Origin: Malacoraja senta
Lineage: Eukaryota
Reading direction: 5' to 3'
Assembly (NCBI GenBank): GCA_038087875.1
Contig: CM075987.1
Location: 19,656,001-19,720,000, forward strand
Length of the DNA: 64,000 nucleotides
Shown here: piece after piece, positions 1,871-40,212 of the stretch
How the letters are laid out: each line of letters opens with the position of its first letter
Numbering within the stretch: the first letter of the stretch is position 1
Translations under genes and position numbers: made by a program
Notes under the pieces: model-generated
The model's input: the letters and a program-made list of their open reading frames with translations, nothing else
Databases searched by the model: none
What the model was told of the DNA's origin: nothing

Positions 1871-2807
1871 GTGCCTCAGCTGCTTTGTATTGTAGAAATT
1901 GCACTCGGACCTACTGTCGCACACACACACACGTATTTCTTTGGGTGAAAGCTAAAATTACGTGAAAAGTCTTAATTTATAACTTTCTAGACCTAACGTA
2001 TTCACAAAGGCTAAATGGTAAGCAGCAATATAGGCAGTGTAAAATACAGTGACTGGGCTGTAGTTGCCAGCAAAGCAGAGGTCTTGATTCTAAAATGTGT
2101 TAGATGGTAACTGCTGTGATCAAGGCCTGGGCGCCTGGTGGAGTTTTTGACCTGAGGGGTGGAACAAGTGGTGATGCTCGTCCAATAACACATAATAGCA
2201 TTGTTTATCTTCAGTTTGGAAGATTAGATTAATTTGACAGAGCTGAAATTGTTTACCATCATTGCAAATCTTCACGCTTAAAGAGCTTAGCGGTGATCTG
2301 GTAAAACTCAAACTATCTGGGTATTGTTTCTCATCCAGTCTTGAAAATATAGCAAGTTTTGCAAACCCTAAGGCACTGGTATTTTTCATTTGAATTAATG
2401 GAGGTGGGAGAGGTGGGGTGAGGGTGAGTGTCTGGTTGATAATGAGGTAGTTCTGATCAGAGTATCTCTTGCCTGGTTTTGTTGCCGATCTGCATTAGCA
2501 GCTGGTTTAGTGAAACCCTGTCTCTGCCTTAAAAAAAACACTCATGCCTACATCCATGTTCATGCTGTATCTATTCACACTTCATCACCTTTTTCTCATT
2601 GTCTAGGTGACAGTTTTTTTTCTGTGAAAATTTGCTTTCACCTTTCTAATGGGAATGCACACATAGTTCCACACCCAAGAAACTGCAAATACTGGAATCT
2701 TGAGCAAAACACAAAGTACTGGAGTAACTCAGCAGGTCAGACAGTGGTTTCCCTACTTTTCTCAAATTGCTTCCAAAAAGCTTTAATCGGAACCCATCAT
2801 TTCCCCC

Positions 2808-2949
2808 TTCTTCTTCTTCTTGAGTATGGCGTGCACAGCCTAAAGTTGTAGGTCAACTTGTTCTATTTGATCTATTTGTTTGTGCACGTCGGGTTGATTG
2901 CATTAGTCGAAACAGGGTGGACTACGTGAAGGTTGCAATCTCCCACCCC
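2808..2949 (-). mobile_element. Short retroposon with 5' HDV-like ribozyme, 3' hairpin and (AAG)n tail
   Basis: The minus strand starts GGGGTGG and ends CAAGAAGAAGAAGAA. Internal CGTGCACA/TGTGCACG stem. Flanks ATTTCCCCC (2799-2807) and AATTCCCCC (2950-2958) match 8/9, a candidate TSD. Confidence 0.75.
2896..2949 (-). ncRNA. Minimal HDV-like self-cleaving ribozyme motif
   Basis: P1 GGGGUGG/CCACCCU with first G-U wobble; P2 GAUUGCA/UGCAAUC; P3 ACC/AGU (one mismatch); L3 UUCACGU; tiny P4 (U-UUCG-A); J4/2 CUAA. Confidence 0.75.
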
Positions 2950-3403
2950 AATTCCCCCTGCAGCTAAGAGTTTCAACATCCCAGTGGTTTAAATTCTTTT
3001 TGATCTAAAATGACCCAATGATTACATGTATCCATTGTGTTTTAACATTTGCATTAATTTTTTCATGAAGATTTTAGCCTCAAACAATAACTTGGGCTTG
3101 CAGTTGATATTTATCTAGGTATGCAAGAGCACGAGTTGTTGGGTCCAACACTCTGCAAGTGGGGGAAATTGAGTGCATAACATCTATCAGTAGTGTGTAC
3201 TTCCTTTCTTCAACTTCCTGCTTATTAGGCTATCTTCAGTCACTCATTTGGAAAACAAACGATCACAAATTAGAAGTTTGATTTTAGTGAAATTCGTGAT
3301 GTCCGTTTTTTCCCAACAAAGTAGCATTGATCTTGTGTGTAAATGAGGGAGAAAACATAGGGTACTCGTCACTCCAGTAGTTATTTTGTAATTTCTAAAA
3401 TAA

Positions 3404-27489: not shown

Positions 27490-30400
27490 CTATTCAACCT
27501 ATATTTAATATTCAGGAAGGATAGACAGAAAGGAAGAGAAGGTGCGGTGGCATTGCTGGGTAAAGAGGAAATTAATGCAATAGCAAGAGACATTAGCTTG
27601 GATGCTGTAGAATTGGTATGGGTAGAACTGTGAAATAACCAAGGGCAGAAAACATTTGTTGGAGTTGTATACAGACCACCAAACAGTAGTAGGGAGGTTG
27701 GGGATAGCATCAAGCAGGAAATTAGGGATGCGTATAGCAAAGGTACCGCAGTTCTCATGGGTGACTTTAATCTACATATAGATTAGGCCAGCCAAATTTG
27801 TAACAGTGCTGAGGAGGAGGATTTCCTGGAATGTATACGGGATGTTTTTTTAAACCAATATGTAGAATACACGACTAGAGGACAGGCCATCCTAGAATGG
27901 GTATTGTGTAATGAGGAAGGATTAGTTAGCAGTATTGTTGTGCAAAGCCCCTTGGGCAACAGTGACCACAATATAGTGGAATTCTATATTAGGATGGAGA
28001 GTGACACAGTTAATTCAGAGACTAGGGTCCTGAACATAAAGAAAGGAGATTTTGAAGGTATGAGACAGGAATTGGCTAGGATAGACTGGCAAATTATGCT
28101 CAAAGGGTTGACGGTGGAGATGCAATGGCAAAGATTTAAAGACCGCATGGATGAACTCCAAAAATTGTTCATCCAAGTCTGGCGAGAAAAAAAAATGGGG
28201 AAGGTGGCTCAACTGTGGCTAACTGGGGAAATCAAGGATAAGGTACACAAAAATGCTGGACAGGGTCTTGGTGAGACCACACCTGGAGTATTGCGTACAG
28301 TTTTGGTCTCCAAATCTGAGGAAGGACATTATAGCCATAGAGGGAGTGCAGAGAAGGTTCACCAGACTGATTCCTGGGATGTCAGGACTTTCATATGAAG
28401 AAAGACTGGATAGACTCGGCTTATACTCGCTAGAATTTAGGAGATTGAGAGGTGATCTTATAGAAACTTACAAAATTCTTATGGGGTTGGACAGGCTAGA
28501 TGCAGGAAGATTGTTCCTGGTGTTGGGGAAGTCCAGGACAAGGGGTCACAGCTTAAGGATAAGGGGGAAATCCTTTAAGACCGAGATGAGAAAAAACTTT
28601 TTCACACAGAGAGTGGTGAATCTCTGGAACTCTCTGCCACAGAGGGTAGTTGAGGCCAGTTCATTGGCTATATTTAAGAGGGAGTTAGATGTGGCCCTTG
28701 TGGCTAAAGGGATCAGGGGGTATGGAGAGAAGGCAGGTACGGGATACTGAGTTGGATGATCAGCCATGATCATATTAAATGGCGGTGCAGGCTCGAAGGG
28801 CCGAATGGCCTACTCCTGCACCTATTTTCTATGTATCTATGTTTCGGGCCGAGGATAATGTTAAATCCAAGGAAAAATCATTTAAATTGGCCAGAGGAGG
28901 CAGCAAACCAGAGAACTGGGAGAAATTTTCTGGGAGTTCTGTCTTCCCTAAGGAAGACTCAAACAATCTCCCAGAAATACTAGGGGACCGAGGATCTAGT
29001 GGGAGGGACGAACTGAAGGGAATCCACATTAGTCAGGAAATGGTGTTAGGTAAACTGTTGGGACTGAAGGCAGATAAATCCCCAGGGCTTGATGGCCTGC
29101 ATCCCAGAGTACTCAAGGAGGTGGCCATAGAAATCGTGGATGCATTGGTGATCATTTTCCAATGTGCTCTCGACTCTGAATCAGTTCCTGTCGACTGGAG
29201 GGTAGCCAATGTAACCCCACTTTTTAAGAAAGGAGGGAGAGAGAAAACGGGGAATTATAGACCAGTTAGCCTTACATCGGTAGTGGGGAAGATGCTTGAG
29301 TCGATTGTTAAAGATGTTATAGCAGCACATTTGGAAAGCAGTGACAGGATCGGTCAAAGTCAGCATGCTTGATTAATCTTCTGGAATTTGTTCAGGATGT
29401 AACAAGTAGAATGGATAAGGGAGAGCCAGTGGACGTGGTGTATCTAGATTTTCAAAACGCATTTGACAAGGTCCCACACAAGAAATTAGTGTGCAAAATT
29501 AGAGCATATGGTATTGGGGGTTGGGGATTCAAGATTCAAGATTCAAGATTTCCTTTATTGTCATTCAGACCTTTCGGTCTGAACGAAATTGACATGTAAT
29601 ATTGACATGGATAGAGAACTGGTTGGCTGACAGGAAGCAAAGAGTAGGAAGTAATGGGTCCTTTTCAGAATGGCAGTGGAGTACCACAAGGCTGGGACGC
29701 CAGTTGTTTACAATATACATATTAACAATTTAGATGAGGGAATTAAATGTGACATCTCCAAGTTTGCGGATGACACAAAGCTGAGTGGCAGTGTGAGTTG
29801 CGATGAGGATGCTATGAGGCTGCAGGGTGACTTGGATAGGTTGGGTGAGTGGGCAGATGCATGGCAGATGCAGTATAATGTGGATAAATGTGAGGTTATC
29901 CACTTTGGTGGCAAGAACAGGAAGGTAGATTATTATCTGAATGGTGTCAGATTAGGAAAAGGGGAGTTACAACGAGACCAGGGTGTGCTTGTACATCAGT
30001 CACTGAAAGTAAGCATGCAGGTATAGCAGGCAGTGAAGATAGCTAATGGCATGTTGGCCTTCATTGAGAGAGGATTTGAGTTTAGGAACAAGGAGGTCCT
30101 ACTACAGTTGTACAGGGCCCTGGTGAGACTGCATCTGGAGTATTGTGTGCAATTTTGGTCTCCTAATTTGAGGACGGACATTATTGCTATTGAGGGAGTG
30201 CAGCGTAGGTTCACCAGGTTAATAACCGGGATGGCGGGACTGACATATGATGAAAGAATGGGTCAACTGGGCTTGTATTCACTGGAATTTAGAAGGATGA
30301 GAAGGGATCTTATAGAAACATATAAAATTCTTAAAGGATTGGACAGACTAGATGCAGGTAAAATGTTCCCGATGTTGGAGGAGTCCAGAACCAGGGTTCA

Positions 30401-30671
30401 CAGTTTAAGAATAAGGCCATTTAGGACTGAGATGAGAACAAAAATTTTCACCCAGAGTGTTGTGAATCTGTGGAATTCTCTGCCACAGAAGGCAGTGGAG
30501 GCCAATTCACTGGATGTTTTCAAGAGAGAATTAGATGTAGCTGTTAGGGCTAAAGGAATCAAGGGATATGGGGAAAAAATAGGAACGGGGTACTGATTTT
30601 AGATGATGAGCCGTGATCATATTGAATGGCGGTGCTGGCCTACTCCTGCAACTCTTTTTCTATGTTTCTAT
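27490..30671 (+). mobile_element. CR1 LINE ORF2 pseudogene (APE + RT), internally deleted, with nested inserts
   Basis: YRPP/GDFN, LGNSDH, KSPGLDGLHPRVLKE, NYRPVSLTS, YLDFQNAFDKV, SKFADDTKL and HLEYCVQFWSP in successive frames; CR1 tail at the end. Confidence 0.92.
28261..28843 (+). mobile_element. Second, younger CR1 3' fragment nested in the larger CR1
   Basis: Uninterrupted frame 28253-28750 (LVRPHLEYCVQFWSP..GYGEKAGTGY) plus 3' UTR and tail, interrupting the host CR1 linker region. Confidence 0.88.
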
Positions 30672-34774: not shown

Positions 34775-37700
34775 TTAACCTGGATCATCTTCCGTTATTC
34801 CGAAGATAATCCATTCTGCTTTGGGTATCAGTCTTGTTTTAAATAACTTTGTAAAGATTTCAAAAATTTCATTCCAAAATTTTTGAATTTTTGTACAGAA
34901 GACAAATGAGTGCGCTATAGTTGCTTCTTGGGATTGACATTTATCACAAATAGATGATACGTTTGGGAAAATTTTATGAATTTTAGTTTTCGAATAATAT
35001 AATCTATGTAAAATTTTAAATTGTATTAAAGTGTGTCTTACATTAATCGAGCATTTATGCACATTTAATAAGTATTCATTCCAACTTTCCTTTGAAATTT
35101 TAATAGCTAACTCTTGTTCCCAGTCTCTTCTGATACCCTCCGTAGGTGGTATTTGTACATTTAAAATAATATTATACAAATATGATATTAAGTTTGCTGA
35201 TTCCGCTTTTATCTGCATTGCCTCGTCCAATACATCTACTGGATTATTATAATGATCTTTTGTATATTTTTTCAAATAGTCGCATATTTGAAAATATTTA
35301 AAATATTGATTATTTCCGAGTTTATATTTTATTTGTAATTGTTGAAATGAAAGTAATTTTCCAGTTTCATACAAGTCACCAAGCGTTTTAATTCCTAGTC
35401 TATCCCATTGTGTATAAGCTTTATCTATAATAGAAGGACTAAACGAAGGGTTATTGACTATAGGTAATAAAAGTGATAAGTTTCTTAATTTTAAATTTTG
35501 TTTTATTTGTTTCCAAATACGGATTGTACTATGAATAATTGGGTTCTTATTATAGTTTATGTTATTCAGTTTCATTGGAGAGAGGAGGATCGCTCCAATG
35601 TTTCTAGAGGAGCAATCCTCTTTCTCCATTACAATCCAGTCTACTTGCTGGGCGGAGTTATCCATCAGTTGAATCATGTTTTTAATATTTACTGACCAAT
35701 AATAATACATAAAATTAGGTAGTGCTAGACCCCCCAATACTTTAGGTTTATTCAGATGGGTTTTTTGTATTCTATGTGATTTATAGTCCCATATAAAATT
35801 AGTGATATCTGAGTCGAGTTTTTTTAAAAACTTCTTAGGTAAGTATATAGGAATTGATTGAAATAGGTATAAAATTTGTGGTAAAAAGATCATTTTTATT
35901 GCGTTTATTCGGCCTATTAAAGACATCGGGAGCGTTTTCCAGAATTTAATTAATGTATTCAGTTTATTAAGTAGGGGGTCAAAATTTGCCCTGAACATAC
36001 CTTGATATGTTCTGGTAATTTCGATTCCCAAATATTTAAATTTTTCTGTAGCTATTTTAAAAGGGAATTTTAAAAGATGTGTTGAATCTTTCGGTTTTAT
36101 TGACATAATTTCACTTTTATTCCAATTTATTCTATATCCAGAAAAAGATCCGAAGTCTTCAATTAAATTTAATATATTTGGTATAGTGATTTGAGGTTTT
36201 GTAATATACAGTAATATATCATCCGCGTATAAAGATATTTTATTATATGAGTCTTTAGTATTATATCCATGAATATCAGGGTGTATTCTAATTTTTTCTG
36301 CTAGCGGTTCAATAATGAGAGCAAACAGCTGTGGTGATAATGAGCATCCTTGTCTATTTCCCCTTGATAGTTGAAATTTCGGGGATAATATGTTATTAGT
36401 AAGTATTCTAGCTGTAGGTTTGTTATATAGTAACTTAATCCATAAAATAAAATTCTCTCCCAGTTGAAATTTTTGTAATACTTTATCCATATAATTCCAT
36501 TCTACTTGATCAAATGCTTTTTCAGCATCCAGCGAAATAATTGATAATTCTTGATCTTCAGATTTGTGTGAGTGCATTATGTTGAGTAGACGTCTCATAT
36601 AATTAGAAGAGTATCTCTTAGGGATCAACCCTGTCTGATCTGGGTTTATTAATTTACTAATGTATTTACTTAATCTTCTAGCTAATGTTTTCGCTAATAT
36701 TTTTTGATCTGTGTTTAACAATGCTATAGCTCTATATGAGCCAGGTTCTTCTAAATCTTTATTTTTCTTAGGTATTAATGTAATCGTTGATTCCGCTAAT
36801 GTATCAGGTAGTATTCGTTTTTTAAAAGCGTATTGGTACATTTTTTGTAATCTTGGTATTATTTTATCATAAAAGCTTTTATAAAATTCATTAGTAAATC
36901 CATCAGGGCCTGGTGTTTTTCCATTTTTTAATGAGTTTATTGTATCTTCTAATTCCTTAATTGAGATTTGTGCACCCAGTTCCTCTTGTTCCTTCAGCTC
37001 TAACTTTGGAAGATTACAGGTATCCAAGAACTTTGTGATATTATTGGAATCCATTATCGTTTTAGATGTATACAAATTCTCGTAAAATTGCGCAAATCTT
37101 TTATTAATATCCTTCGGTGTTGTTAATAATTCCCCTTTATCTGATTTGATCTTTGGTATAGTATGTTCCTTTTCTCGTTTTTTTAGCTGGCGAGCCAAAA
37201 GTTTATGCGGTTTATCCCCAAATTCAAAGTGCTCTTGTTTTGTAATTTGAAAAAGTCTTATAAGTTTGGCAGATAATAATTTATTTAATTTAAATTTTAA
37301 AATTATTATTTTATTATGTTGATCTATTGATGGATCTTTAGCATTATCTATATCCATTTGTCTAATAAGTTCTTCTAACTGTCTTTGTTCATTCTTATTC
37401 TTTTTATTTTGAAAAGCTTGATATGAAATTATAATACCCCTAATGTATGCTTTAAAAGATTCCCAAAGTAAAGTAGGCGATATATCTGAAGTATCATTTG
37501 TTTGAAAAAAGACCTCCATTTGTTCTTTTAAATATATACTCGCTTGTGGATCTTTTAAAATTTGACAGTTAAATCTCCAGAATGATTTATTCTTAGACAA
37601 TCCTTCCAGTTTTAAAAAGAAAGTTAGTGGAGAATGGTCTGAAATTGAGTTTGTATGGTATATTGCATTAGATGTTTGGGGGATTAATTTTGTATCCAGC

Positions 37701-38350
37701 AGAAAGTAGTCTATACGTGAGTATGTCTTATGTACCATTGAGTAAAACGAATATTCCCTGCCAGTTGGATTCACAATTCTCCAAACATCTGCTATATTAG
37801 TGTTATTTATATAGGTATTGAGGAGTTCCCCAGTTTTCGATTTCATATTCCCTCTCTGTTTTTGACTTGATTTATCTAAGTACGGATCTAAAACACAGTT
37901 AAAGTCTCCGCCTATTATAACATTTTGATAGTTTGACTCTGCAATTATATTGAAGATTTTATTGAAAAAGTGGGGGTTATCAAAGTTAGGGGCATATATA
38001 TTTACCAAAGTAAGTGGAGTGTCATGGATTTCTCCATTAACTATTAGGTATCTCCCTTCTATATCTGTTATAATATTCTTTGCTTTAAATGGTATACCTT
38101 TTCTTATGATAATTGACGTGCCTCTAGATTTTGAAGTAAATGAAGAGTGGTATGTTTGACCTATCCATTTCGCCCTCAGCCTAACTTGATCCTGAGGTTT
38201 TAGGTGTGTTTCTTGTAAGAAGGTAATGTCAGAATTATACATTTTTAGCTGAGCTAATATCTTACCCCTTTTTATAGGTTCGTTAATACCTCTTATATTC
38301 CAACTACAAAATGAGATTCCTCCTAGGTTCTTTTGTGTGGTGTCATGCAT
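34775..38350 (-). CDS. L1 ORF2p (APE endonuclease, reverse transcriptase, CCHC motif), C-terminally truncated
   Basis: 1191-aa ORF with SWNIRG, LQETH, GGDFN, SRIDY, SDH, PGPDG, SLDAEKAFD, GNRQG, YADD, KYLG and CDKC-x8-H-x4-C. The expected last 60 codons lie in another frame (34596-34778). Confidence 0.95.
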   Translation of the reverse strand: MHDTTQKNLGGISFCSWNIRGINEPIKRGKILAQLKMYNSDITFLQETHLKPQDQVRLRAKWIGQTYHSSFTSKSRGTSIIIRKGIPFKAKNIITDIEGRYLIVNGEIHDTPLTLVNIYAPNFDNPHFFNKIFNIIAESNYQNVIIGGDFNCVLDPYLDKSSQKQRGNMKSKTGELLNTYINNTNIADVWRIVNPTGREYSFYSMVHKTYSRIDYFLLDTKLIPQTSNAIYHTNSISDHSPLTFFLKLEGLSKNKSFWRFNCQILKDPQASIYLKEQMEVFFQTNDTSDISPTLLWESFKAYIRGIIISYQAFQNKKNKNEQRQLEELIRQMDIDNAKDPSIDQHNKIIILKFKLNKLLSAKLIRLFQITKQEHFEFGDKPHKLLARQLKKREKEHTIPKIKSDKGELLTTPKDINKRFAQFYENLYTSKTIMDSNNITKFLDTCNLPKLELKEQEELGAQISIKELEDTINSLKNGKTPGPDGFTNEFYKSFYDKIIPRLQKMYQYAFKKRILPDTLAESTITLIPKKNKDLEEPGSYRAIALLNTDQKILAKTLARRLSKYISKLINPDQTGLIPKRYSSNYMRRLLNIMHSHKSEDQELSIISLDAEKAFDQVEWNYMDKVLQKFQLGENFILWIKLLYNKPTARILTNNILSPKFQLSRGNRQGCSLSPQLFALIIEPLAEKIRIHPDIHGYNTKDSYNKISLYADDILLYITKPQITIPNILNLIEDFGSFSGYRINWNKSEIMSIKPKDSTHLLKFPFKIATEKFKYLGIEITRTYQGMFRANFDPLLNKLNTLIKFWKTLPMSLIGRINAIKMIFLPQILYLFQSIPIYLPKKFLKKLDSDITNFIWDYKSHRIQKTHLNKPKVLGGLALPNFMYYYWSVNIKNMIQLMDNSAQQVDWIVMEKEDCSSRNIGAILLSPMKLNNINYNKNPIIHSTIRIWKQIKQNLKLRNLSLLLPIVNNPSFSPSIIDKAYTQWDRLGIKTLGDLYETGKLLSFQQLQIKYKLGNNQYFKYFQICDYLKKYTKDHYNNPVDVLDEAMQIKAESANLISYLYNIILNVQIPPTEGIRRDWEQELAIKISKESWNEYLLNVHKCSINVRHTLIQFKILHRLYYSKTKIHKIFPNVSSICDKCQSQEATIAHSFVFCTKIQKFWNEIFEIFTKLFKTRLIPKAEWIIFGITEDDPG

Positions 38351-39141
38351 TTTGAATAATTATAGTACCTTTGAATCTTGTGGTGCGTCCATGTCCCAGG
38401 TCTTTAGGTATTGGGGGAGTTTTTGAATTATTAACTTTTGCTGGTATGTCCATTTTACTCTTATCATTAAACACAAAACACAAACAAGTGATTTTATGTG
38501 ATAAAAAAAAAACTAAAAAAGTGAGGCTACAGTGTCTGATATAGTCGGCACTGTAGTGAGTGTCCCACCTCTAGGTGGGAAAAAACCTTGTTTTGACTTC
38601 CATTGCGTTGTTACTCAAATAGCTCCGCTCTCTTAGTTAATCATAACATATTAAAATATTAAAACGAGGCCTCACATTCAGATATATAATACAATTTTAC
38701 CCTGATATTTCCTTATAACATATATATATATCAGAGTTTAATTATTAAACCAATATTTTTGATTTCAATAAGAATCAACTGTTGGTTGAAGGGGTTAACG
38801 AGACGTGCCCCTGGACATAAGCCAGGAGCTCGTTTCTCATCCCCTCCTCCCGCTTATAGACAAGGTTACAATTTATTAAAAATTCATATAAGTATGTTAG
38901 TTCATTATTTTTTTTTTTTTGTTAGTATTCTAATCTAACCTGCATAACTTTTTGTTAATAGGATAAGTTCTTACAATTGGTTATAATATTTTAATCAATA
39001 AGCAATTATTTTCTGATTCAGTTAAGTTGTTTACATGTTTTGAACAGAAAATGTCCTTGATTCAACATTCCAGAGATAACAGTGTAACTATCCCCAGACA
39101 AAACATAGCTGAGAATTGTTCGGATCTGCCAAAGCTCCCTT

Positions 39142-40212
39142 TTATTTCTGTTTTTCAACGATCGTTTGGGCATATTTGAATGCGTCTTCAGGCTTAACAA
39201 ATGACTTTTCAAGACCATTAAAGGAAATACGCATTTTCGCGGGATAAAAAATCCCAAATCTGACCCCTTCTCTCCCTCTTAAAAGATCTTTAACCTTATC
39301 AAATTTGTTTCTTTTTTGCACAATTTCATACGGGTAGTCCCTGAATATCTTAATAGTGTCCTTGTCCAGCCGCAATTGTACACCATATTTGATTTTACTC
39401 ATAACATATTCCAGTTCTGCAGTATCTCGAAATTTCACTATAATATGTCGTGGATAAGCTTTTCCCGCACCAGATCTTTTTCCAAATCTTGGGACACGAT
39501 GAGCCACTTCGATTTTCGGTTCCTTGGAAAGATTCAACAGTTGTTTCAACAAGCCCATGGCAAATTCACGTACCTGTTCCCCTTCTGCCCCCTCTGAAAC
39601 ACCAAGAATTCTCAAATTCTGGCGTCTAGAGCGAGCTTCCAGGTCCAGGCATTTGACTGAGACTTTCTCTAATTGAGTCCCCATTTGTAGTGACGCTTGT
39701 TCGTTTTCTCGCCTCATTTGCTCATGTTCTTGCCTCAATTTCGCCATGTCTTCAACCAGTCGAGCCGTGTTTTTCTCCAATTCCGTAATTGTGTGCATAC
39801 TTGCAGCTACTGTTTCAAGTACAGCCGTGAACTTATCCGTAGTAATTACATCCATCTTATCCATTTTCTCTGATAGTCCATCTTTCACCTCATCAATTCG
39901 TTTATTCATAATGTCCAGTAAATCCGTCATATTCTTCTGGTTACCAGCATTTAAATCCTTCATCATCTTCTCCATTCCTTCCATCATTTTTGCCGAATTT
40001 TCCTTCATTTCCTTCTTATCTTCCACCCTATTATCCGAGATCTCATCTTTCAAATTTTTTATTGATTTCTTCAAGTCATCAAAGTCTTTCTTAGATCTTG
40101 TATCCATTTCTGCAGCCACTTCAGAGACTTCAGAGGTAACTTCTGCTTCAGACTTTTTCGACAGCTTATTCACTGTTCTCTGAGGGCTCACAGCTGGAGG
40201 CAATTTACTCAT
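39142..40212 (-). CDS. L1 ORF1p (coiled coil + RRM + CTD)
   Basis: 356-aa ORF: heptad-rich N-terminal half, DLEARSRRQNLRILGVSEG, IEVAHRV, PRHIIVKF, IFRDYP, FYPAKMRI. Confidence 0.93.
   Translation of the reverse strand: MSKLPPAVSPQRTVNKLSKKSEAEVTSEVSEVAAEMDTRSKKDFDDLKKSIKNLKDEISDNRVEDKKEMKENSAKMMEGMEKMMKDLNAGNQKNMTDLLDIMNKRIDEVKDGLSEKMDKMDVITTDKFTAVLETVAASMHTITELEKNTARLVEDMAKLRQEHEQMRRENEQASLQMGTQLEKVSVKCLDLEARSRRQNLRILGVSEGAEGEQVREFAMGLLKQLLNLSKEPKIEVAHRVPRFGKRSGAGKAYPRHIIVKFRDTAELEYVMSKIKYGVQLRLDKDTIKIFRDYPYEIVQKRNKFDKVKDLLRGREGVRFGIFYPAKMRISFNGLEKSFVKPEDAFKYAQTIVEKQK

Follow-up and report, generated by a model that had tools for sequence, protein, structure and literature searches.

What sets the 5' end of a short, dispersed, non-coding element whose copies nearly all begin at the same base? 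The question arises from a 64,000-nt stretch of Malacoraja senta DNA (the window), in which positions 2808-2949, read on the minus strand, hold one copy of a short non-coding retroposon of about 140 bases. The first-pass annotation, made from the letters alone, had proposed that this element starts exactly at the self-cleavage site of a minimal HDV-like ribozyme. When we re-read the sequence, the minus strand agreed with its transcription, the (AAG)n tail and the flanking repeats GGGGGAATT and GGGGGAAAT were found as claimed, and the proposed CGUGCACA/UGUGCACG stem was present in the minimum-free-energy fold, together with an inner AAGUUG/CAACUU hairpin. RNA positions are numbered here so that nucleotide n corresponds to window position 2950 minus n. 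In 5' to 3' order of the RNA, the features of the window copy are:

2950-2958, minus strand: upstream copy of the target-site duplication, GGGGGAATT; it abuts G1 and matches the copy after the tail over 10 nt with one mismatch
2896-2949, minus strand: candidate HDV-like ribozyme head without P4 (nt 1-54), with a predicted cut between 2950 and 2949 (pair table)
2943-2949, minus strand: predicted P1 5' strand GGGGUGG, in which G1 (2949) wobbles with U36 (2914) (pair table)
2934-2940, minus strand: predicted P2 5' strand GAUUGCA, nt 10-16, 7/7 pairs with nt 48-54
2921-2933, minus strand: predicted P3 strand ACC (nt 17-19), loop L3 UUCACGU (nt 20-26) and P3' (nt 27-29; AGU here, GGU in the family)
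2923, minus strand: the G27A change, by which the predicted closing pair of P3, C19-G27, is lost (28 of the 30 copies have G; contig depth of four runs)
2914-2920, minus strand: predicted P1 3' strand CCACCCU, nt 30-36 (pair table)
2903-2906, minus strand: J4/2 CUAA, nt 44-47, with C44 (2906) as the candidate catalytic cytosine (pair table; 23/23 heads of an older subfamily)
2896-2902, minus strand: predicted P2 3' strand UGCAAUC, nt 48-54 (pair table)
2822-2895, minus strand: 3' domain, nt 55-128, predicted as a long hairpin with the outer stem CGUGCACA/UGUGCACG and the apical AAGUUG/CAACUU, followed by AUAC(U/G)C
2808-2821, minus strand: (AAG)n tail, variable in length in all 30 copies
2799-2807, minus strand: downstream copy of the target-site duplication, GGGGGAAAT (sequence comparison of the flanks)

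The family to which this copy belongs (family 1) was surveyed in the 1.94-Gb assembly that contains the window. Allowing for at most 3 mismatches, its opening 23 nt gave 10,483 genome matches compared to a single match for the reversed control. A DNA search with the element returned 2,343 first-look candidates, and the 40 that were scored were 96-100% identical to the query, with the alignment starting at query base 1 in 36 matches, base 2 in three and base 3 in one. In all 30 copies fetched with their surroundings, homology began at the same base and the upstream flanks were unrelated, and hence no copy extended upstream of the GGGG. The first base was G in 27 of the 30 and was substituted or lost in the other three. 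Duplications of at least 9 bp with at most one mismatch, ending at G1 and restarting after the tail, were present in 27/30 copies, compared to 7/870 in a mismatched-flank control that set the flank of one copy against the sequence downstream of another. The coincidence of element boundary and predicted cleavage site, first noted for the window copy, was thereby confirmed for the family.

Every one of the 30 copies ended in an (AAG)n tail, and many duplications overlapped the tail by a few A/G bases, a pattern that suggests priming by microhomology at the target. Many substitutions among copies fell at CpG sites. Copies truncated at the 5' end were rare; three were fetched, each with its own duplication, and a run of N, due either to a gap in the assembly or to withheld sequence, lies upstream of a truncated copy in L098 (G000:C4:8969120-8969810). 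With many dispersed copies, variable duplications and a 3' repeat tail, the family has the properties of a retroposon. The tRNA, 7SL or 5S head with polymerase III promoter that defines a SINE in the strict sense was not found, as the element gave no Rfam match to any of the three, and a tRNA-derived head was rejected because ARAGORN finds no tRNA.

Most SINEs have a defined 5' end due to RNA polymerase III, and the uniform end of family 1 might likewise mark a transcription start from an internal or upstream promoter, with the HDV-like fold being coincidental or non-catalytic. The word GTTTCGAC in the head, which we take to be loosely reminiscent of a B box, and the absence of any run of four or more T in family 1 agree with such a promoter, against which stands the missing similarity to tRNA, 7SL or 5S RNA. 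The fold itself, its statistical weight and its behaviour in related sequences bear further on this possibility.

As modelled by base pairing, nt 1-54 fit an HDV-like double pseudoknot without P4. In the window copy, P1 joins nt 1-7 (GGGGUGG) to nt 30-36 (CCACCCU), the G1·U36 wobble included, and P2 joins nt 10-16 (GAUUGCA) to nt 48-54 (UGCAAUC) with all seven pairs formed, while P3, ACC at nt 17-19 opposite AGU at nt 27-29, has two pairs and one C·A mismatch. P1' is followed by GU, then by the 5-nt linker UUCGA and by CUAA directly before P2'. The nested double pseudoknot is complete in the consensus-like copy L016 (P1 7/7, P2 7/7, P3 3/3). In HDV and CPEB3 ribozymes the cleavage site lies where the 5' strand of P1 begins, and the helix opens with a G1·U wobble; the G1·U36 pair occupies this place in family 1 as well as in a second family described below, and the DNA copies start at G1. 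In P1.1, the short helix that joins L3 to the two bases behind P1', C22-G37 is the sole standard pair, its neighbour being U·U in family 1 but C·U in the second family. C44 stands at the first position of J4/2 and is followed by UAA or GAA and then by P2'.

The 5-nt linker UUCGA takes the place of P4 in family 1, and this absence of P4, like the single standard pair of P1.1, counts against reading the head as a ribozyme. Minimal ribozymes with a reduced P4, perhaps matching the linker found here, are reportedly the subject of Riccitelli et al. 2014. A reduction of P4 is described for 'minimal' HDV-like ribozymes, for which reason P4 was not treated as defining. The catalytic cytosine of HDV-like ribozymes is placed at the first position of J4/2 (bioRxiv 10.1101/2023.06.13.544163). 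Downstream of the head, the 3' domain (nt 55-128) folded with a minimum free energy of -14.7 kcal/mol (z -2.38), and 5 of 200 shuffles folded as well. The nested fold of the whole element, calculated without pseudoknots, was no more stable than shuffles (z -0.54), which also counts against the ribozyme.

How often such a fold would arise by chance was assessed with our own HDV-type descriptors on 14 dinucleotide shuffles of the window. The relaxed descriptor, which allows one P3 mismatch, found 11 matches in the 14 shuffles, or 0.79 per 64 kb; this counts against the ribozyme, and a single relaxed match is by itself not significant. The strict descriptor was passed by the family consensus and had 0 matches in the 14 shuffles, which argues against a coincidental fold behind a promoter-set end. 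Jointly, the strict-descriptor pass and a predicted cut that falls precisely where a family with more than 10,000 copies has its 5' end are far beyond chance. A second relaxed-descriptor match in the window, at 1324-1376 on the plus strand, lies in a CG-rich stretch and is probably due to chance.

Rfam gave no family at threshold on the window, and the window copy had no HDV match even at E values up to 10. For the consensus-like copy L004, the two best Rfam matches were both to HDV-family models, namely HDV-F-prausnitzii (17.5 bits, E 0.11, cut-off 44), whose full length aligned to G1 through the last base of P2', and CPEB3 (15.5 bits, E 0.035, cut-off 35). A search of the whole genome with the HDV-F-prausnitzii model scored 62 candidates and yielded five matches of 25.9-36.7 bits, all below 44. 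No HDV-family score thus reached its curated cut-off (17.5 bits for L004 and at most 36.7 in the genome search, where 44 is required; 15.5 bits for CPEB3, where 35 is required), which favours the promoter and counts against the ribozyme. The same model also gave sub-threshold matches in 6 of 14 control bacterial genomes, which likewise counts against the ribozyme.

The single P3 mismatch that the first-pass annotation had pointed out, AGU where the family should have GGU, was checked against the consensus. GGU was present in 28 of the 30 copies, with G at position 27, and A occurred only in the window copy and in L023. All the computational checks that the first-pass annotation had proposed turned out favourably for it. 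Contigs of four runs from four organisms were mapped on the window; their depth increased four to five orders of magnitude within the bins that cover the element (about 2797 to 2958), and 98.4-99.4% of the depth at 2923 belonged to the family letter in the four runs. The adjoining positions 2662-2769 belong to another extremely abundant repeat, with contig depth in the millions in all four runs; related sequence lies in the flanks of other loci (e.g., L080, L097 and L100), as an inverted pair in L100. The G27A change of the window copy arose either after insertion or in a rare source copy. Because the change is private to this copy, it is reasonable to regard the copy as possibly dead, and if transcribed it would probably cleave poorly, given the predicted place of G27A in P3'.

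Apart from position 27, at which the window has its own change, only positions 32 and 45 of the head varied by more than 10% in the four runs. At position 32 (2918) the other letter made up about 44-58% of the depth, being A or G, both of which can pair with U5, and position 45 lies second in J4/2. No variant above 10% was seen at 2906 (C44). The 3' domain, by comparison, had at least six variable positions and one indel in the same runs. Because only 32 and 45 vary in the head besides 27, these data suggest, weakly, that change in the source copies has avoided paired positions. Dispersed copies evolve neutrally, and therefore selection can be argued only from what distinguishes the subfamilies and families from one another; these events are few.

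One such difference is provided by an older subfamily, which we found by searching with the 3' domain alone, avoiding a bias towards the head, at 85-98% identity. Among 30 of its loci, 23 had a complete head that began at the same start base and adjoined its duplication, and the remaining seven had internal head deletions or 5' truncations. In the 23 complete heads C44 was invariant (23/23), G27 was present in 22 and G32 in 20, the latter replacing the U5-A32 pair by a U5·G32 wobble. P3' was GGU in 22/23, and position 45 was G in 16/23, giving a J4/2 of CGAA. The 3' stem of this subfamily, as read from the sequences, has 10 bp.

Words sampled from the family occurred in runs of seven organisms from 12 studies. 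The contigs of one run (X12) matched the flanks of the window without difference. In another (X11), the upstream flank was about 6% diverged in one contig and continued into nt 1-38 of the element; the remainder of this contig did not fit the window. This junction is a hint that the insertion probably predates the split of the X11 and X12 organisms. An empty orthologous site was not seen in the runs; in run X10 the junctions have no coverage, which is no proof of one.

A second element, found via the shared 3' terminus, allowed the fold to be compared between families. Family 2 is 204 nt long, as in L100:329-532 (G000:C6), where a 12-13-bp duplication flanks it. A search with it gave 830 first-look candidates; 40 were scored at 90-100% identity, and 35 of these started at query base 1 or 2, base 2 being the first G. 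Its head had 583 matches compared to one in the control, and the copies start at GGGG next to their duplications. The HDV-F-prausnitzii model aligned to L100 from the first G with 24.7 bits (E 0.0027), and the two best matches of the whole-genome search with this model were also copies of family 2 (L101 and L102), each with its own duplications. The two families have unrelated bodies, and all they have in common at the 3' end is CA(T/A)ACGC(AAG)n.

In the head, the two families have in common G1·U, the P3 strands ACC/GGU, a 7-nt L3 and GU after P1', and the C-G pair of P1.1 is also kept in family 2. The J4/2 of family 2 is CGAA, as in the older subfamily of family 1. P1 pairs 5, 6 and 7 differ between the families on both strands, yet remain paired, and the P2 sequence is entirely different, yet also paired; P1 and P2 thus covary between the families. 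Family 2 additionally carries a 5-bp P4 hairpin and contains a run of 5-6 T. The commonest variant of its head has G at position 16, which would extend P2 to 7 bp with the C that precedes GACAAC, an extension put together from different copies. In L101 (G000:C5114:177950-178320, reverse strand), an extra G in the 5' strand of P1 is accompanied by an extra C in the 3' strand, so that P1 reaches 8 bp, either through a compensated insertion or by coincidence.

Family 2 weighs on the origin of the uniform end in two ways. A polymerase III transcript would end at the T run within the element, and a complete HDV-type fold starts exactly at nucleotide 1 in both families, although their P1 and P2 sequences differ. 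We hence consider a promoter-set end unlikely. Another explanation would accept the fold as real and give it mainly a protein-binding or end-protecting role for the reverse transcriptase of the partner, with the RNA end being set otherwise and then copied in full length. The R2 protein is described as binding a pseudoknot within the R2 ribozyme region (PMC6765202), and the striking rarity of 5'-truncated copies would also agree with such a role. The features kept in both families are, however, the catalytic ones (G1·U, C as the first base of J4/2, CGAA), and another process would still be needed to make an end exactly at G1. This explanation is very unlikely in our judgement.

We consider it probable that the window copy was dead on arrival and belongs to a short, non-coding retroposon that depends on a LINE and encodes, in nt 1-54, a self-cleaving HDV-like ribozyme lacking P4. 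As read from their sequences, the copies testify directly that, many thousands of times, RNA extending from G1 to the (AAG)n tail was copied over its full length and integrated through target-primed reverse transcription. In the mechanism that we propose, a source copy would be transcribed within a longer transcript that starts outside the element; we infer outside transcription because a tRNA, 7SL or 5S head is lacking and the T run of the sister family would stop polymerase III. Judging from its structure, the ribozyme would fold as a double pseudoknot and cut immediately 5' of G1 via C44 in J4/2, and this self-cleavage would set the RNA's 5' terminus. The reverse transcriptase and endonuclease of a LINE would then recognise the 3' end CA(U/A)ACGC(AAG)n, prime on the nicked target, often at A/G-rich microhomology, and copy the RNA to its very end. 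Such a process would leave DNA copies from G1 to (AAG)n between duplications of about 8-13 bp, as seen in the sequences. The window copy would later have acquired G27A in P3'.

To find the partner LINE, the whole genome was screened with six patterns that excluded ordinary copies by means of IUPAC codes for 'not this base'. None of these exact-anchor screens revealed a LINE sharing the head or the 3' end, which counts against the proposed explanation. Patterns for the head followed by non-element sequence gave 300 matches, of which 30 were inspected among the 100 listed, and 96 matches that were all listed; they contained only indel variants, disrupted copies and unrelated sequence. Patterns for the 3' hairpin or terminus after foreign sequence gave 6, 43, 43 and 80 matches, which comprised only deleted or 5'-truncated copies and family 2, and the shared terminus led to nothing further in 362 kb of fetched sequence. 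This negative result is weak, since every screen depends on perfectly matching anchors of 12-20 nt and lets any particular foreign sequence through with a chance of about 0.4, so that a diverged or rare LINE would be missed. The partner may belong to the RTE clade, as the first-pass annotation suggested from the short-repeat tail.

One abundant LINE (L049, L053, L055 and L061, around position 1500) was considered as partner and rejected, because it shares only a coincidental 12-mer, ACTAATGCAATC of the P2' strand of the ribozyme, which lies in its reverse-transcriptase coding region and has no (AAG)n tail in about 1.5 kb downstream. Other LINE sequences were seen in the window itself. Positions 34775-40212 on the minus strand, an AT-rich stretch, hold an apparently intact L1-like LINE, with a frame of 1,194 aa carrying endonuclease, reverse-transcriptase and zf-RVT domains and an upstream frame of 356 aa with a weak L1 ORF1-type match. 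Positions 27787-30596 on the plus strand, a G-rich stretch with several open frames and one weak reverse-transcriptase match (E 0.0073), are probably a decayed LINE.

The screens also bear on the origin of family 1. The element might be a short internally deleted element (SIDE), i.e., the 5' ribozyme of an autonomous LINE joined to the 3' untranslated region of the same LINE; this would be a statement on origin, compatible with self-cleavage at G1 as the process that sets the RNA end. R2 SIDEs are described with the same architecture (PMC3414825), and two families with different bodies and the common terminus CA(T/A)ACGC(AAG)n would be expected if one enzyme serves both. Against it stands the fact that no parent LINE with the same head or 3' end was found in the exact-anchor screens, and we regard a SIDE origin as a tentative possibility.

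It is established that non-LTR retrotransposons, non-autonomous ones among them, can have an HDV-like ribozyme as their 5' end, with R2 and its SIDEs, L1Tc/NARTc, RTE and Baggins as the examples given in PMC6765202. Like family 1, the Drosophila R2 SIDEs are described as non-coding elements that combine a 5' HDV-like ribozyme with a 3' end used for target-primed reverse transcription by the enzyme of a LINE, and their ribozyme is reported to set the RNA's 5' terminus by self-cleavage of a co-transcript (PMC3414825, PMC6765202). According to these accounts they are site-specific in rRNA genes, rare and visibly derived from R2, whereas family 1 is dispersed, with variable duplications, more than 10,000 copies and an (AAG)n tail, and a parent LINE with the same head was not found in the exact-anchor screens.

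Dispersed elements headed by an HDV-like ribozyme are also described in trypanosomatids, namely L1Tc/NARTc and the Pr77-bearing SIDER. L1Tc and NARTc form a pair of autonomous and non-autonomous elements, in which a ribozyme in the first 77 nt is reported to release the RNA from longer transcripts (PMC3383444, PMC4035085, PMC6765202). The same 77 nt are described as an internal promoter as well, and the tails as A-rich; in family 1, by contrast, nothing suggests a promoter, the ribozyme candidate lacks P4 and is 54 nt long, and the copies end in (AAG)n. SINE-like Schistosoma elements and retrozymes with hammerheads resemble family 1 as non-autonomous retroelements with a small self-cleaving ribozyme (PMC6765202), but they use another ribozyme class and are described as needing tandem copies or circular RNA, whereas one 5' ribozyme in each copy would suffice here. 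The drz-Mtgn and theta ribozymes of gut phages are said to have the same compact double pseudoknot with the catalytic C first in J4/2 (bioRxiv 10.1101/2023.06.13.544163); as described there, these minimal ribozymes occur in phages and microbiomes adjoining tRNAs, whereas that of family 1 would head a eukaryotic retroposon.

The closest likeness in sequence is to the mammalian CPEB3 ribozyme (Rfam RF00622), which shares with family 1 the L3 sequence UUCACGU, the CCCUGU stretch from the end of P1' into P1.1 and a weak P1.1 with one G-C pair. The CGAA of the older subfamily in J4/2 is the Rfam consensus of CPEB3. Family 1 differs in lacking P4, in its P1 and P2 sequences and in its mobility and many copies, the CPEB3 ribozyme occupying one intronic site. 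The score of 15.5 bits against 35 and the more than 10,000 dispersed copies against a single copy in the CPEB3 intron place it outside that family. Family 1 is hence neither a CPEB3 family member nor, without a polymerase III head, a SINE in the strict sense. By analogy, it would be a ribozyme-terminated non-autonomous retroposon that works like an R2 SIDE or NARTc. In the literature searched, which left two primary surveys and the repeat databases outside, we found no description of such a family beyond the Drosophila R2 SIDEs and the trypanosomatids; the family may already have been catalogued.

Family 1 adds a very abundant dispersed family, with its 10,483 head matches, and a ribozyme candidate of only 54 nt without P4 to the known systems. 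Together with the sister family that keeps P4, it offers a natural before-and-after pair on the contribution of P4, and the window copy with its G27A change is a natural mutant of the candidate ribozyme. As the two families share only about 7 nt and (AAG)n at their 3' ends, they also narrow the likely recognition by the reverse transcriptase. Because L3, the CCCUGU stretch and CGAA are identical, it is conceivable, albeit improbable, that the heads are living relatives of the lineage behind the mammalian CPEB3 ribozyme, and that the 54-nt form is the smallest natural HDV-type ribozyme active in an animal genome. If this were true, an ancient ribozyme-terminated retroposon would have supplied the head that was domesticated as the CPEB3 ribozyme. 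The family would then also demonstrate that an element without a promoter can reach 10,000 copies by read-through transcription and self-cleavage alone.
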